From Escherichia coli (GTDB taxonomy: Bacteria > Pseudomonadota > Gammaproteobacteria > Enterobacterales > Enterobacteriaceae): DNA of 64,000 bases. Shown piece by piece: positions 2,846-36,540 of this stretch. Location of the stretch: NCBI RefSeq assembly GCF_003334815.1, contig NZ_QOWO01000004.1; one strand, given 5' to 3'. The notes under the pieces are model-generated. The model saw only the letters and a list, made by a program, of their open reading frames with translations. It did no database searches and was not told where the DNA came from. The position numbers and the translations under genes were made by a program. Within the stretch, counting starts at the first letter, position 1, and each line of letters begins with the position of its first letter.

Positions 2846-3163
2846 ATGATCGTGCAAAAAGAGCTAGTTGCTATTTACGATTATGAGGTCCCTGTACCTG
2901 AAGATCCGTTTTCCTTCAGACTTGAGATCCATAAATGCTCTGAATTATTTACAGGTTCCGTCTATCGACTGGAGCGATTCCGGCTACATCCAACATTTCA
3001 TCAACGTGATCGAGAAGATGCTGACCCGCTAATAAATGATGCGTTGATTTATATAAGAGATGAGTGTATTGATGAGCGGAAATTACGAGGTGAATCACCT
3101 GAAACTGTAATAGCAATTTTTAATCGTGAACTACAGAATATATTCAACCAAGAAATAGAATAA
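2846..3163 (+). CDS. yehK: Small acidic protein of unknown function (105 aa)
   Basis: ORF track 2846..3163; ATG preceded by GGGGAAAG; position between yehI and yehL. Confidence 0.7.
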   Translation: MIVQKELVAIYDYEVPVPEDPFSFRLEIHKCSELFTGSVYRLERFRLHPTFHQRDREDADPLINDALIYIRDECIDERKLRGESPETVIAIFNRELQNIFNQEIE

Positions 3164-3229
3164 TATACTCTAGATAATTAAAGTCGCAGCACATGCAACT
3201 TGAAGTATGACGAGTATAGCTTTCTTAAA

Positions 3230-3249
3230 GGGGGAAACGGTATTCCCCC
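3230..3249 (-). terminator. Hairpin downstream of toxin gene 1 (GGGGGAA / TTCCCCC stem); weak U-tract
   Basis: Inverted repeat read directly; on the minus strand only TTT follows the stem. Confidence 0.4.
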
Positions 3250-3272
3250 TTAGATGCGTTTCAATTTGCCCG

Positions 3273-3362
3273 TTACTTCAACAAATCAATCAACCGTAAC
3301 AGAGCCACTAATAACTCCAGTACGGCAATGAGCACGGTTAACTTTTGTGTCAGCGTGTCCAT
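3273..3362 (-). CDS. zorO: Type I toxin, 29-aa hydrophobic peptide MDTLTQKLTVLIAVLELLVALLRLIDLLK (ZorO-like)
   Basis: Minus-strand ATG at 3362 with AAGGAG 5 nt upstream, TAA at 3275..3273; one predicted transmembrane helix with charged ends. Not in the supplied ORF track (too short). Gene name from memory of the zor-orz family. Confidence 0.75.
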   Translation of the reverse strand: MDTLTQKLTVLIAVLELLVALLRLIDLLK

Positions 3363-3543
3363 CCGCTCTCCTTATTAAGGAGCGCAACACCAGCACCTTA
3401 CCCTTACACTGCCTGTTGATACTGGTTTACGTATGTTGGTACGAAACGTTGCTCTCCGGATCAGGGCACCGCCTGCGGCACCACCCGTCCGGCAGCCAGG
3501 ACTTAAAATTGGTCCGATCCGGCACAACCTCCCAACGGGCAGG

Positions 3544-3594
3544 ATTATAAATCTCACTCACTGAATTGCAATGGAGTGTGGATATGGTTATAAT
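3544..3594. promoter_or_regulatory. Back-to-back sigma70 promoters of unit 1
   Basis: Toxin promoter on minus strand: -10 TATAAT (complement of 3544..3549), 16-nt spacer, -35 TTGCAA 3566..3571. sRNA promoter on plus strand: same palindromic TTGCAA as -35, 17-nt spacer, -10 TATAAT 3589..3594. Confidence 0.55.
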
Positions 3595-3600
3595 TTATTC

Positions 3601-3681
3601 GTTGGTACGAAATGTTGCACAATCAGCAAGTTAGCGTCACTGTAGTAAATAAAAGAACCTGCCTCACCAGCAGGTTTTTTT
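3601..3681 (+). ncRNA. orzO: Antitoxin small RNA 1 (OrzO-like), ~80 nt
   Basis: Predicted start ~7 nt after the -10; 5' segment 3601..3620 GTTGGTACGAAATGTTGCAC is complementary to the toxin leader at 3435..3452; ends at an intrinsic terminator. Extent is predicted, not measured. Confidence 0.6.
3656..3681 (+). terminator. Intrinsic terminator of sRNA 1 (AACCTGC-CTCACCA-GCAGGTT followed by a T-run)
   Basis: 7-bp stem, 7-nt loop and a T7 run read directly. Confidence 0.7.
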
Positions 3682-3837
3682 ATTTACTGCGATCTACTTT
3701 CCAGATATTTTTTGCCAATAGCCCAACTTAAATATTCACATCCCGGTCAAATGGTGCGTTGAATATAAAATCGATGAATTTATAAATAAAAATGAGTTAT
3801 ATGATGAATTAATAAAAACAGTAATCATTTTATTAAA

Positions 3838-3857
3838 GGGGGAAGCGGTTTTCCCCC
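3838..3857 (-). terminator. Hairpin downstream of toxin gene 2
   Basis: GGGGGAA...TTCCCCC inverted repeat, as in unit 1. Confidence 0.4.
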
Positions 3858-3880
3858 TTAGATGCGTTTCAATTTGCCCG

Positions 3881-3970
3881 TTACTTCAACAAATCAATCA
3901 ACCGTAACAGAGCCACTAATAGCTCCAGTACAGCAATGAGCACGGTTAACTTTTGTGTCAGCGAGTCCAT
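3881..3970 (-). CDS. zorP: Type I toxin paralog, 29 aa MDSLTQKLTVLIAVLELLVALLRLIDLLK (ZorP-like)
   Basis: Same architecture as 3273..3362; one substitution (T3S); AAGGAG Shine-Dalgarno conserved. Confidence 0.75.
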   Translation of the reverse strand: MDSLTQKLTVLIAVLELLVALLRLIDLLK

Positions 3971-4151
3971 CCGCTCTCCTTATTAAGGAGCGCAACACCA
4001 GCACCTTACCCTTACACTGCCTGTCGATACTGGTTTACGTATGTTGGACCACGATGTTGCACTCCGGATCAGGGCACCACCTGCAGCACCCCCCGTCCGG
4101 TAGCCAGGACTTGAAATAGGTTCGATCCGGCGCAACGTCCCAACAGTCAGG

Positions 4152-4202
4152 ATTATAAATCTCATTATCTTAATTGCAACGGGGTCCAGCCGTGGTTATA
4201 AT
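4152..4202. promoter_or_regulatory. Back-to-back sigma70 promoters of unit 2
   Basis: Toxin -10 (complement of 4152..4157), shared -35 TTGCAA 4174..4179, sRNA -10 TATAAT 4197..4202; spacers 16 and 17 nt. Confidence 0.55.
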
Positions 4203-4208
4203 TCGTTC

Positions 4209-4291
4209 GTTGGAACACGATGTTGCACAGGCTGTGGTGTTAGGCCTGAAAATAGTAAATAAAAGAACCTGCCTCACCAGCAGGTTTTTTT
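4209..4291 (+). ncRNA. orzP: Antitoxin small RNA 2 (OrzP-like)
   Basis: 5' segment 4209..4228 GTTGGAACACGATGTTGCAC is complementary to the leader of toxin 2 at 4043..4062; intrinsic terminator at the 3' end. Confidence 0.6.
4266..4291 (+). terminator. Intrinsic terminator of sRNA 2
   Basis: Same AACCTGC...GCAGGTT stem and T-run as unit 1. Confidence 0.7.
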
Positions 4292-4402
4292 ATTTACTGC
4301 GATCTGCTTTCCAGATATTTTTTGCTCAAACAACTAATGCGCCAAACATTTATTGCGCGTAAAATATCGTTTATTTCATTAATACATTTCAGGGATGAAT
4401 AT

Positions 4403-5491
4403 ATGTCACCGCAGAATAATCATCTGCAGCGTCCGCCTGCTGCTGTGTTATACGCCGATGAACTGGCAAAATTAAAACAAAATGATAACGCTCCTTGCCC
4501 GCCCGGTTGGCAGTTAAGTTTGCCTGCGGCCCGTGCTTTTATCCTTGGCGATAGCGCGCAAAATATTAGCCGTAAAGTGGTGATTAGTCCCTCCGCTGTC
4601 GAACGTATGTTAGTCACTCTTGCCACCGGGCGCGGTTTGATGTTGGTGGGGGAACCTGGCACCGCAAAATCTCTCCTGTCTGAATTACTGGCAACCGCTA
4701 TTAGCGGCGATGCCGGGTTAACCATCCAGGGCGGCGCATCTACTACCGAAGATCAAATCAAGTACGGCTGGAACTACGCCCTGCTTATCAATCATGGTCC
4801 ATCAACGGAAGCGCTGGTCCCTGCCCCGCTTTACCAGGGAATGCGCGACGGCAAAATCGTCCGTTTTGAAGAGATAACGCGTACACCGCTGGAAGTGCAA
4901 GACTGTCTGTTAGGTATGCTTTCTGACAGGGTGATGACGGTGCCGGAACTCACTGGTGAAGCCAGTCAGCTCTATGCGCGAGAAGGCTTTAATATTATTG
5001 CCACTGCCAATACCCGCGATCGCGGCGTCAATGAAATGAGTGCTGCGCTAAAGCGTCGCTTCGATTTTGAAACTGTCTTTCCGATTATGGATTTCGCCCA
5101 GGAGCTGGAGCTTGTCGCCAGTGCTTCGGCGCGTTTGCTGGCCCATAGCGGTATTCCGCATAAAGTGCCTGACGCGGTACTGGAGTTACTGGTCCGCACC
5201 TTCCGCGATCTGCGTGCCAACGGCGAAAAGAAAACGTCAATGGATACACTAACAGCGATTATGTCCACCGCTGAAGCCGTGAACGTGGCCCACGCCGTAG
5301 GCGTCCGCGCCTGGTTTTTAGCGAATCGCGCAGGTGAGCCAGCCGACCTGGTGGACTGCATTGCCGGAACCATCGTCAAAGATAACGAAGAAGATCGCGC
5401 TCGTCTGCGCCGTTACTTCGAACAACGAGTCGCCACACATAAAGAAGCTCACTGGCAGGCTTATTATCAAGCCCGCCACCGCCTGCCGTGA
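4403..5491 (+). CDS. yehL: MoxR/RavA-like AAA+ ATPase (362 aa)
   Basis: ORF track 4322..5491 trimmed to ATG 4403; Walker A GEPGTAKS in the translation. Confidence 0.8.
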   Translation: MSPQNNHLQRPPAAVLYADELAKLKQNDNAPCPPGWQLSLPAARAFILGDSAQNISRKVVISPSAVERMLVTLATGRGLMLVGEPGTAKSLLSELLATAISGDAGLTIQGGASTTEDQIKYGWNYALLINHGPSTEALVPAPLYQGMRDGKIVRFEEITRTPLEVQDCLLGMLSDRVMTVPELTGEASQLYAREGFNIIATANTRDRGVNEMSAALKRRFDFETVFPIMDFAQELELVASASARLLAHSGIPHKVPDAVLELLVRTFRDLRANGEKKTSMDTLTAIMSTAEAVNVAHAVGVRAWFLANRAGEPADLVDCIAGTIVKDNEEDRARLRRYFEQRVATHKEAHWQAYYQARHRLP

Positions 5492-5501
5492 GGAAAGATG
5501 C

Positions 5502-7781
5502 ATGAGCGAGCCGTTAATTGTCGGCATCCGGCATCATAGTCCGGCCTGCGCCCGGCTGGTGAAATCGTTAATCGAAAGCCAGCGGCCACGATACGTATTG
5601 ATTGAAGGCCCGGCTGATTTTAATGACCGGGTAGACGAACTGTTTTTAGCCCACCAGCTTCCGGTAGCTATTTACAGTTATTGCCAGTATCAGGACGGTG
5701 CAGCCCCCGGGCGTGGTGCCTGGACGCCATTTGCTGAATTTTCGCCGGAGTGGCAGGCGCTACAAGCCGCACGTCGTATTCAGGCACAAACTTACTTCAT
5801 CGATTTGCCTTGCTGGGCGCAGAGTGAAGAAGTGGACGATTCGCCTGATACGCAAGAGGAAAGCCAGGCCTTGCTGCTGCGTGCCACCCGCATGGATAAC
5901 AGCGACACCCTGTGGGATCACTTGTTCGAAGATGAAAGCCAGCAAACTGCATTACCCTCTGCACTGGCGCACTATTTTGCCCAACTGCGGGGCGACTCCC
6001 CCGGAGATGCTCTCAATCGTCTGCGCGAAGCCTTTATGGCCCGCTGGATTGGATGGGCGATGCAGCAAAATAATGGCGACGTGTTAGTTGTCTGCGGTGG
6101 CTGGCACGCTCCGGTACTGGCAAAAATGTGGCGCGAATGCCCGCAGGAAATTAACACGCCAGAATTGCCGTCGCTGGCAGATGCCGTTACAGGTTGTTAT
6201 CTCACCCCCTACAGTGAAAAGCGCCTTGATGTGCTGGCAGGATACCTTTCCGGAATGCCTGCCCCGGTCTGGCAAAACTGGTGCTGGCAGTGGGGCTTAC
6301 AGCAGGCGGGAGAACAACTGCTAAAAACGGTTCTCACCCGTTTGCGCCAGCACAAGTTGCCTGCTTCGACCGCGGATATGGCTGCCGCACATCTGCATGC
6401 AATGGCACTGGCACAGTTGCGCGGTCATACACTACCGTTACGCACTGACTGGCTGGATGCCATAGCAGGATCGCTGATTAAAGAAGCCCTGAATGCGCCG
6501 TTGCCGTGGAGCTATCGCGGCGTTATTCATCCCGACACCGATCCGATTCTGCTAACGTTGATAGACACATTAGCGGGTGACGGATTCGGTAAACTTGCCC
6601 CTTCTACGCCACAACCTCCTCTGCCAAAAGATGTCACCTGCGAACTGGAACGTACCGCAATCTCCCTTCCGGCGGAGCTTACCTTAAATCGCTTTAACCC
6701 CAATGGACTAGCGCAAAGTCAGGTGTTACATCGGCTGGCAATACTGGAGATCCCAGGGATTGTGCGCCAGCAGGGAAGCACACTGACACTTGCAGGCAAC
6801 GGTGAAGAACACTGGAAATTAACCCGCCCGCTTAGCCAGCATGCGGCATTGATTGAGGCCGCCTGCTTTGGTGCCACACTCCAGGAAGCCGCACGCCATA
6901 AATTAGAAGCCGATATGCTGGACGCGGGTGGAATCGGCAGTATCACCACATGTCTTAGCCAGGCGGCGTTAGCGGGTCTGGCGTCCTTCAGTCAACAATT
7001 ACTGGAGCAACTCACATTATTAATCGCCCAGGAAAATCAATTTGCCGAAATGGGCCTGGCGCTGGAAGTGCTTTACGCCTTATGGCGGCTGGATGAAATT
7101 AGCGGTATGCAAGGCGCGCAGATATTACAAACGACGTTATGCGCGGCTACCGATCGCACGCTGTGGCTGTGTGAATCTAACGGCAGACCGGATGAAAAGG
7201 AGTTTCACGCTCACCTGCATAACTGGCAGGCGCTTTGCCATATCCTGCGCGATCTACATAACGGCGTTAATTTACCCGGCGTTTCTCTTTCTGCGGCGGT
7301 AGCCTTACTGGAGCGACGCAGTCAGGCGATTCATGCCCCGGCGCTGGATCGCGGCGCGGCTCTTGGCGCACTAATGCGTCTGGAACATCCCAACGCCAGT
7401 GCCGAAGCGGCGCTGATGATGCTGGCGCAGTTATCCCCGGCACAATCCGGCGAGGCGCTGCACGGTTTGCTGGCATTAGCCCGTCATCAACTGGCCTGTC
7501 AGCCGGCATTTATCGCCGGTTTCAGCAGTCATTTAAATCAACTAAGTGATGCCGATTTTACCAATGCCCTGCCCGATTTACGCGCGGCGATGGCCTGGCT
7601 ACCGCCACGAGAACGCGGGATGCTGGCGCATCAGGTGCTTGAGCATTATCAACTGGCGCAACTTCCCGTTTCGGCACTGCAAATGCCGTTGCATTGTCCT
7701 CCGCAAGCCATTGCACATCATCAACAACTCGAACAGCAGGCACTGGCATCGCTGCAAAACTGGGGAGTTTTCCATGTCTGA
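5502..7781 (+). CDS. yehM: Large protein of unknown function (759 aa), partner of yehL/yehP
   Basis: ORF track 5334..7781 trimmed to ATG 5502 (starts MSEPLIVGIRHH); no motif I recognise. Confidence 0.75.
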   Translation: MSEPLIVGIRHHSPACARLVKSLIESQRPRYVLIEGPADFNDRVDELFLAHQLPVAIYSYCQYQDGAAPGRGAWTPFAEFSPEWQALQAARRIQAQTYFIDLPCWAQSEEVDDSPDTQEESQALLLRATRMDNSDTLWDHLFEDESQQTALPSALAHYFAQLRGDSPGDALNRLREAFMARWIGWAMQQNNGDVLVVCGGWHAPVLAKMWRECPQEINTPELPSLADAVTGCYLTPYSEKRLDVLAGYLSGMPAPVWQNWCWQWGLQQAGEQLLKTVLTRLRQHKLPASTADMAAAHLHAMALAQLRGHTLPLRTDWLDAIAGSLIKEALNAPLPWSYRGVIHPDTDPILLTLIDTLAGDGFGKLAPSTPQPPLPKDVTCELERTAISLPAELTLNRFNPNGLAQSQVLHRLAILEIPGIVRQQGSTLTLAGNGEEHWKLTRPLSQHAALIEAACFGATLQEAARHKLEADMLDAGGIGSITTCLSQAALAGLASFSQQLLEQLTLLIAQENQFAEMGLALEVLYALWRLDEISGMQGAQILQTTLCAATDRTLWLCESNGRPDEKEFHAHLHNWQALCHILRDLHNGVNLPGVSLSAAVALLERRSQAIHAPALDRGAALGALMRLEHPNASAEAALMMLAQLSPAQSGEALHGLLALARHQLACQPAFIAGFSSHLNQLSDADFTNALPDLRAAMAWLPPRERGMLAHQVLEHYQLAQLPVSALQMPLHCPPQAIAHHQQLEQQALASLQNWGVFHV

Positions 7782-24716: not shown

Positions 24717-24889
24717 GATGAGCATTCAGATAGTGGTTCACGCGCACGGGTTGCGCACCGCCGGAGTAAGGATTTACTGAGGCTAGCGACGCCATCATAA
24801 CGAGCAAAAAGTGCGATCGTCAAAGGAGAATCGTGAGGAAATGCTGCATTGCTGACATTTACGCCAGCAATGCAACGTCAAAGAACTTT

Positions 24890-36354: not shown

Positions 36355-36540
36355 GACGCATCCGGCATTTGGTTCCTGTCGCCGGATGCGGCTTGAACGC
36401 CTTATCCGGCCTACAAAACCATACAAATCAGTATGTTGAGCTTATTGTAGGCCGGATAAAACGCGCCAGCGTTGCATCCGGCATTTGGCTCCTGTTGCCG
36501 GATGCGGCGTGAACGCCTTATCCGGCCTACAAAACCACAC
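36355..36540. repeat. BIME: cluster of REP elements in alternating orientation
   Basis: Three GCCGGATGCGGC...TTATCCGGCCTACAAA-type units between preA and mglC. Confidence 0.85.

Follow-up and report, generated by a model that had tools for sequence, protein, structure and literature searches.

Between yehK and yehL in a 64,000-nucleotide (nt) stretch of Escherichia coli DNA (contig NZ_QOWO01000004.1 of RefSeq assembly GCF_003334815.1; hereafter the window) lie two tandem units of about 495 bp each, contained within positions 3221-4325. Each unit carries on the minus strand a gene for a hydrophobic 29-amino-acid (aa) peptide and, diverging from it on the plus strand, a gene for a small RNA (sRNA). 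Judged by its sequence, region 3221-4325 is almost certainly the chromosomal zor-orz locus of E. coli, with zorO-orzO and zorP-orzP as tandem type I toxin-antitoxin pairs. This locus is already known: it was reported in 2010 as Z3289/Z3290, placed 'between yehI and yehL' (Fozo et al. 2010, PMC2887945), and has been dissected in several later papers. An earlier note, made from the letters of this DNA alone, had described two direct repeats with an AT-rich spacer between yehK and yehL and had taken them for a zor-orz-like type I module, probably of a known family. Its layout is reproduced by a repeat finder, which aligns 3221-3520 with 3829-4128 (93% identity) and 3643-3715 with 4253-4325 (99%), by a MAFFT alignment in which 3221-3715 and 3829-4325 differ at 60 of 497 columns and by the GC content of the inter-unit stretch 3716-3835 (25%, with 46-48% in the units and 52% in the window). 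Its identification is borne out by exact ZorO and ZorP peptides and by two sRNAs that pass the Rfam OrzO-P model, and its location agrees with the RefSeq annotation of a matching O157:H7 region (99.3% identical), where the gene order is yehI-yehK-[locus]-yehL-yehM. This is the position by which the family is recognized, chromosomal and between yehK (yehI) and yehL in Escherichia or Shigella. The elements of the locus are the following.

3228-3681: unit 1, the zorO-orzO pair, zor on the minus strand and orz on the plus strand
3228..3251, minus strand: hairpin (GGGGGAA...TTCCCCC) and short U tract at the zorO 3′ end, a presumed terminator (from inverted repeat and fold)
3273..3362, minus strand: zorO coding sequence, 29 aa, MDTLTQKLTVLIAVLELLVALLRLIDLLK, identical in every residue to the synthetic ZorO of PMC6669753 (section 4.3)
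3363..3536, minus strand: zorO 5′ untranslated region (UTR), 174 nt; Shine-Dalgarno (SD) sequence at 3368-3373, paired with CTCCTT at 3377-3382
3435..3464, minus strand: zorO EAP region (+73..+102), with the OrzO target at 3435-3452 and a standby-like GGAGAG at 3452-3457
3536 and 4144, minus strand: transcription starts (+1) of zorO and zorP
3508 and 4116, minus strand: processed (delta-28) 5′ ends of zorO and, by analogy, of zorP
3544..3594: zorO/orzO divergent promoters; zorO -10 TATAAT at 3549..3544 (minus), -35 TTGCAA at 3566-3571, orzO -10 TATAAT at 3589-3594 (plus)
3601..3681, plus strand: orzO sRNA, 81 nt; V1 is GAA at +9..+11 (3609-3611); terminator stem-loop and U7 at 3651-3681
3716..3828: AT-rich inter-unit spacer, 27% GC
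3836-4291: unit 2, the zorP-orzP pair, zor on the minus strand and orz on the plus strand
3836..3859, minus strand: zorP 3′ hairpin, a presumed terminator (from inverted repeat and fold)
3881..3970, minus strand: zorP coding sequence, 29 aa, MDSLTQKLTVLIAVLELLVALLRLIDLLK, T3S relative to ZorO
3971..4144, minus strand: zorP 5′ UTR, taken as 174 nt like that of zorO; it holds the SD (3976-3981), the OrzP target (4043-4062) and GGAGTG (4060-4065)
4043-4072, minus strand: zorP EAP region (+73..+102)
4152..4202: zorP/orzP divergent promoters; zorP -10 at 4157..4152 (minus), -35 TTGCAA at 4174-4179, orzP -10 at 4197-4202 (plus)
4209..4291, plus strand: orzP sRNA, 83 nt; V1 is ACG at +9..+11 (4217-4219); terminator and U7

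The two 29-codon hydrophobic reading frames that had been proposed on the minus strand are present at 3273..3362 and 3881..3970, each with an AAGGAG SD sequence 5 nt before its ATG. Zor peptides are defined as the 29-aa hydrophobic ZorO or its variants ZorP (T3S) and ZorQ (A20S), and the single residue change in the second peptide is the one that defines ZorP (PMC11264685). The ZorO peptide has a grand average of hydropathy of 1.40, with residues 8-22 as its hydrophobic core; between them, the two coding sequences differ by one non-synonymous and two synonymous changes. The zorO transcript predicted from start and terminator runs from 3536 to about 3226, or about 310 nt, in agreement with the approximately 310-nt band reported for zorO mRNA (PMC3919570). 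ZorO is an inner-membrane protein that damages the membrane and halts growth when overproduced (PMC3919570, PMC5397157, PMC6669753), and the toxicity of Z3290 (ZorP) has also been demonstrated (PMC2887945).

Both antitoxin RNAs match the Rfam family RF02083 (OrzO-P) over the full model length, with 88.8 bits for 3608-3681 and 99.9 bits for 4216-4291 against a gathering score of 60, and both end in a 12-bp hairpin followed by a U7 run according to the Rfam structure and the predicted fold. The specificity region V1 comprises Orz positions +9..+11, GAA in OrzO and ACG in OrzP (Wen et al. 2014, PMC3919570). Placing +1 at 3601 and 4209 puts these triplets exactly at +9..+11, which shows that the earlier note had chosen the sRNA starts correctly; together with the Rfam matches, this confirms its divergent RNA genes of about 80 nt at 3601..3681 and 4209..4291, each with its own promoter and intrinsic terminator. 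Expression of OrzP has been demonstrated in the zor-orz literature. A simple terminator scan had placed the Orz terminators on the minus strand only, a result overruled by the Rfam consensus structure and the minimum-free-energy (MFE) folds, which have the U7 on the plus strand; sub-threshold Rfam matches in the region (STnc370, Thr and Trp leaders, isrH) were dismissed as terminator-like or chance.

The 5′ ends of both sRNAs pair with the toxin leaders of their own units, as had been proposed for their first 20 nt or so. Nucleotides 1-18 of OrzO pair continuously with zorO +85..+102, including one G-U pair, and none of 500 shuffles reaches a run of 18 (shuffle maximum 17). Between OrzP and zorP, 19 of 20 positions are paired, in blocks of 6 and 13 around one mismatch. 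According to Wen et al. 2014, functional pairing takes 15 or more continuous nt, or 17 or more where one internal mismatch is present, and both duplexes lie above this threshold. Cognate duplexes are more stable than crossed ones (free energies of -32.9 kcal/mol for OrzO-zorO and -39.0 kcal/mol for OrzP-zorP, with cross pairs at -26.4 and -29.5 kcal/mol), which fits the published observation that OrzP does not repress zorO (PMC3919570). At positions 6, 9, 10 and 11 of the pairing segment, the same four substitutions distinguish the two units in Orz and in the target, and therefore the two pairs have co-varied. Divergence between the units is 0% in the Orz terminator half, 1% in leader +103..+174, 3% in the coding sequence, 11% in leader +1..+82, 20% in the Orz pairing segment, 35% in the Orz target and 73% in the Orz middle. 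A tandem pair with co-varying pairing segments offers a clean natural case of duplicated RNA-controlled modules avoiding cross-talk.

A consensus scan finds four sigma70 sites that match 10 of 12 positions (TTGCAA-N16/17-TATAAT), one divergent pair in each unit. These are all the promoter-like sites in 3100-4450, and the count alone is not significant, as shuffled sequences average 3.0; the assignment rests instead on the symmetric placement in both units and on the literature. The -10 hexamers put a transcription start about 174 nt from each toxin ATG, matching the near-consensus promoter previously proposed some 175 nt upstream, and the promoter hexamers and ribosome-binding site (RBS) found here are those that Table 3 of PMC11264685 gives for EDL933. 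In each unit the divergent zor and orz promoters have a palindromic -35 hexamer in common, TTGCAA at 3566-3571 and at 4174-4179, read in opposite directions; a 16-nt spacer separates it from the zor -10 and a 17-nt spacer from the orz -10. A possible, though rather doubtful, consequence is that holoenzyme could bind in only one orientation at a time, which would make toxin and antitoxin transcription mutually exclusive on any one template; if true, the shared -35 would add a layer of transcriptional coupling above the known RNA-level control. The shared palindrome is not discussed in the text (figures aside) of PMC3919570 or PMC11264685, and may be noted elsewhere. In all, the covariance-model score, peptide, pairing, V1, promoter, RBS, leader length and position that characterize the zor-orz family are all found at this locus.

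Further features of the zorO leader agree with the published account, from which the 174-nt UTR, the removal of 28 nt (delta-28 processing) and the sequestration of the RBS are taken (PMC5397157). The published leader length places zorO +1 at 3536, 8 nt past the -10 hexamer (3544-3549); homology with zorO, together with the location of the zorP -10 hexamer, sets the zorP start at 4144. The Orz target lies 73-92 nt upstream of the zor ATG, compared with a reported distance of 72-92 nt (PMC2887945). MFE predictions place the SD within a CTCCTT/AAGGAG hairpin in both the full-length and the delta-28 mRNA, and they pair the Orz target with the mRNA 5′ end only in the full-length form. For zorO these folds match the probing data in the literature (PMC5397157); for zorP delta-28 the picture is less clear-cut. 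We also observed a common GUUGG at the 5′ ends of the two zor mRNAs (3525-3536 and 4133-4144, minus strand) and of the two Orz sRNAs. Pairing of the zor 5′ end with +85..+102 in the modelled full-length fold suggests that the 5′ end may act as a built-in antitoxin mimic until processing removes it, in keeping with the published EAP model.

The identities of the elements and the Orz-zor pairing are observed directly in this DNA; how the locus would work can be proposed by joining them to experiments in EDL933, where OrzO rescues ZorO growth arrest in a manner that needs RNase III and not Hfq (PMC3919570), the first 18 nt of OrzO are enough for repression (reported among PMC3919570, PMC5397157 and PMC6669753), leader processing raises translation, which OrzO blocks by pairing in the EAP region (PMC5397157), and V1 confers specificity (PMC3919570). 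PMC9860968 is a further experimental paper on zor-orz in EDL933, beside PMC2887945, PMC3919570, PMC5397157 and PMC6669753. In the proposed scheme, transcription from the sigma70 promoter would yield a zor mRNA about 310 nt long, 174 nt of it leader, with its SD in a local hairpin. The 5′ end of the full-length mRNA would mask the EAP region (+73..+102) and keep translation poor, until loss of the first 28 nt exposed that region, with its standby-like ribosome site, and allowed the 29-aa peptide to be made. The Zor peptide is predicted to form a single inner-membrane helix that, in excess, would damage the membrane and arrest growth. The divergent Orz RNA (about 80 nt) would place its first 18-20 nt on +85..+102 of its own zor mRNA, blocking translation and leading to RNase III-dependent cleavage without Hfq, and the co-varying bases, V1 GAA in OrzO and ACG in OrzP, would insulate the two pairs from each other. 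We infer that the published EDL933 behaviour extends to the source strain and that OrzP represses zorP likewise.

The locus shares with zorO-orzO/zorP-orzP of EDL933 (Fozo 2010; Wen 2014, 2017) its site, tandem layout, promoters, RBS and 174-nt leader, and its peptides, sRNAs and targets are identical to those of EDL933. Searched by megablast in a set of 5,426 complete E. coli genomes, the segment 3150-4400 returned an O157:H7 match at 99.3% over 1251 bp; the best match found was calf isolate 52F4, at 99.9%. Alignment with O157:H7 F8797 gives nine point differences or indels in the locus region and none in either sRNA, target site or peptide. One lies in the zorO leader at +120 (window 3417, T here for C), one is a synonymous GTG/GTA difference at 3914 in zorP, read from the alignment, and the others fall in the spacer or downstream of the sRNA terminators. 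Beyond the locus, the yehM frame (5334-7781, plus strand) is open in the window, whereas RefSeq records it in F8797 as a pseudogene with an internal stop; the window therefore comes from a close non-O157 relative and not from the O157:H7 lineage of F8797.

K-12 presents a different state. The earlier note had believed the locus to be absent from K-12, which holds for both toxin genes in MG1655 and fails for the promoters and a complete orzP, all retained in the K-12 alignment. The yehK-yehL spacer of MG1655 (about 300 bp), compared with window 3164-4405, can be aligned to the right-hand portion of unit 2. It has the shared -35, both -10 hexamers, the start of the zor leader and an orzP identical to 4209-4291, and it lacks both toxin reading frames, both Orz targets and orzO. 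The leader remnant in K-12 is given as 27-29 nt, its orzP is an expressed orphan sRNA, OrzPmg, and the orz-only state occurs in about 30% of genomes (Shore et al. 2024, PMC11264685). In our searches the inter-unit junction 3684-3880, scored as present at a coverage of at least 80%, occurs in 1817 of the 5,426 complete genomes (33%), a measure of how often the two units stand in tandem, and 30 evenly spaced megablast hits divide into roughly one-third two-copy, one-third single-copy and one-third K-12-like loci. These counts agree in outline with the published population picture.

Among other type I systems, tisB-istR1 and shoB-ohsC share with zor-orz a divergent rather than antisense sRNA, a pairing of about 18-21 nt between the sRNA 5′ end and a long toxin leader, and a processed, translatable mRNA under standby-site type control (PMC3919570, PMC5397157). 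Their sequences are unrelated to zor-orz, and they are single-copy loci, in contrast to the tandem arrangement here. TisB is SOS-controlled, and zor is not known to have an SOS input.

The 29-codon frames are not the most conspicuous ones in the units, and two longer minus-strand frames could be taken for the real genes:

3375..3557, minus strand: 60-aa frame in unit 1
3983..4165, minus strand: 60-aa frame in unit 2

These are the longest frames in each unit and are open in both copies, yet we regard a coding role for them in place of the 29-codon frames as most improbable. The first begins at a GTG (3557) inside the promoter, upstream of the mapped zorO transcription start (3536), and both frames sit wholly within the experimentally characterised untranslated leader (PMC5397157). 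Their copies differ by 11 non-synonymous and 6 synonymous codons, compared with only one and two in the 29-aa frames, and RefSeq makes no call for them. The earlier note had remarked that the supplied ORF track misses the toxins and shows two artefactual 60-aa frames; the frames are indeed there and look non-coding. Still less credible is a reading of the repeats as part of some unrelated element, repetitive or mobile (resembling repetitive extragenic palindromes or miniature inverted-repeat transposable elements, or an insertion-sequence remnant), with reading frames and complementarity incidental. A multicopy 56-nt palindrome at 3163-3218 does adjoin the locus, and the copy number of the locus varies among strains; the ~495-bp units themselves, however, are confined to the one chromosomal site between yehK and yehL, have no transposase or terminal inverted repeats bounding them, match a curated antitoxin RNA family above threshold and encode peptides identical to the experimentally toxic ZorO and ZorP.

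A toxin-antitoxin locus in sequence could have ceased to work as one in the source strain, or the Orz RNAs could mainly regulate in trans, with toxin control secondary. The roughly 30% of E. coli genomes that keep orz only and the conserved, expressed orphan orzP of K-12 (PMC11264685) speak for such a reading, as does the absence of a clear phenotype for the single chromosomal copy in published tests (PMC9860968). We nevertheless consider it unlikely: all functional elements are intact and identical to those of EDL933, no trans target of Orz is known, and the pairing segments co-vary between units, arguing for continuing selection on cognate repression.

Several points weigh against the zor-orz toxin-antitoxin assignment itself. 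The OrzO-zorO duplex contains one G-U pair, where the papers speak of 'perfect' complementarity; O157:H7 has the same bases. Repression of zorP by OrzP is not directly demonstrated in the zor-orz papers cited, and the literature establishes no physiological role for zor-orz. The working of the locus in the source strain would be carried over from EDL933, on the strength of identical sequences in these elements. Finally, no annotation pipeline backs the call: RefSeq, through its Prokaryotic Genome Annotation Pipeline (PGAP), gives no feature between yehK and yehL in the O157:H7 F8797, K-12 or MJ-T records, leaving zorO, zorP, orzO and orzP all unlabelled, and NCBIfam, which has no Zor model, returned no family for either 29-aa peptide at E values up to 1. 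A 'hypothetical protein' under some of the genome matches is a yehK variant in the RefSeq records and not a zor gene. The toxin genes and sRNAs of a validated locus were thus missed by the ORF track, by RefSeq/PGAP and by NCBIfam, and the full architecture was nonetheless correctly rebuilt from sequence alone.

The palindrome beside the locus is a 56-nt element at 3163-3218, between the yehK stop and the zorO terminator, with inverted-repeat ends ATATACTC...GAGTATA. Either strand folds into a hairpin (z about -2.7 to -3.0); the element gives a partial, sub-threshold Rfam match to isrH and carries no RefSeq annotation. Every one of the 5,426 complete E. coli genomes has it, at a median of 6 sites each; another copy lies between yafP and ykfJ/prfH. 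It was not found discussed in the zor-orz papers searched for it. In the K-12 yehK-yehL spacer, orzP and the start of the zor leader are fused to the first ~17 nt of this element (TATACTCTAAATAATTC), which places one endpoint of the orz-only deletion inside it; we did not find this endpoint in PMC11264685, which describes the orphan sRNA. Elsewhere in the window, the Rfam search identifies two further RNAs, both on the minus strand: naRNA4/CssrE at 36450-36527, with 88.3 bits against a gathering score of 59.5, and a Peptidase-S11 cis-regulatory RNA at 24721-24801, with 72.8 bits against one of 34.8.

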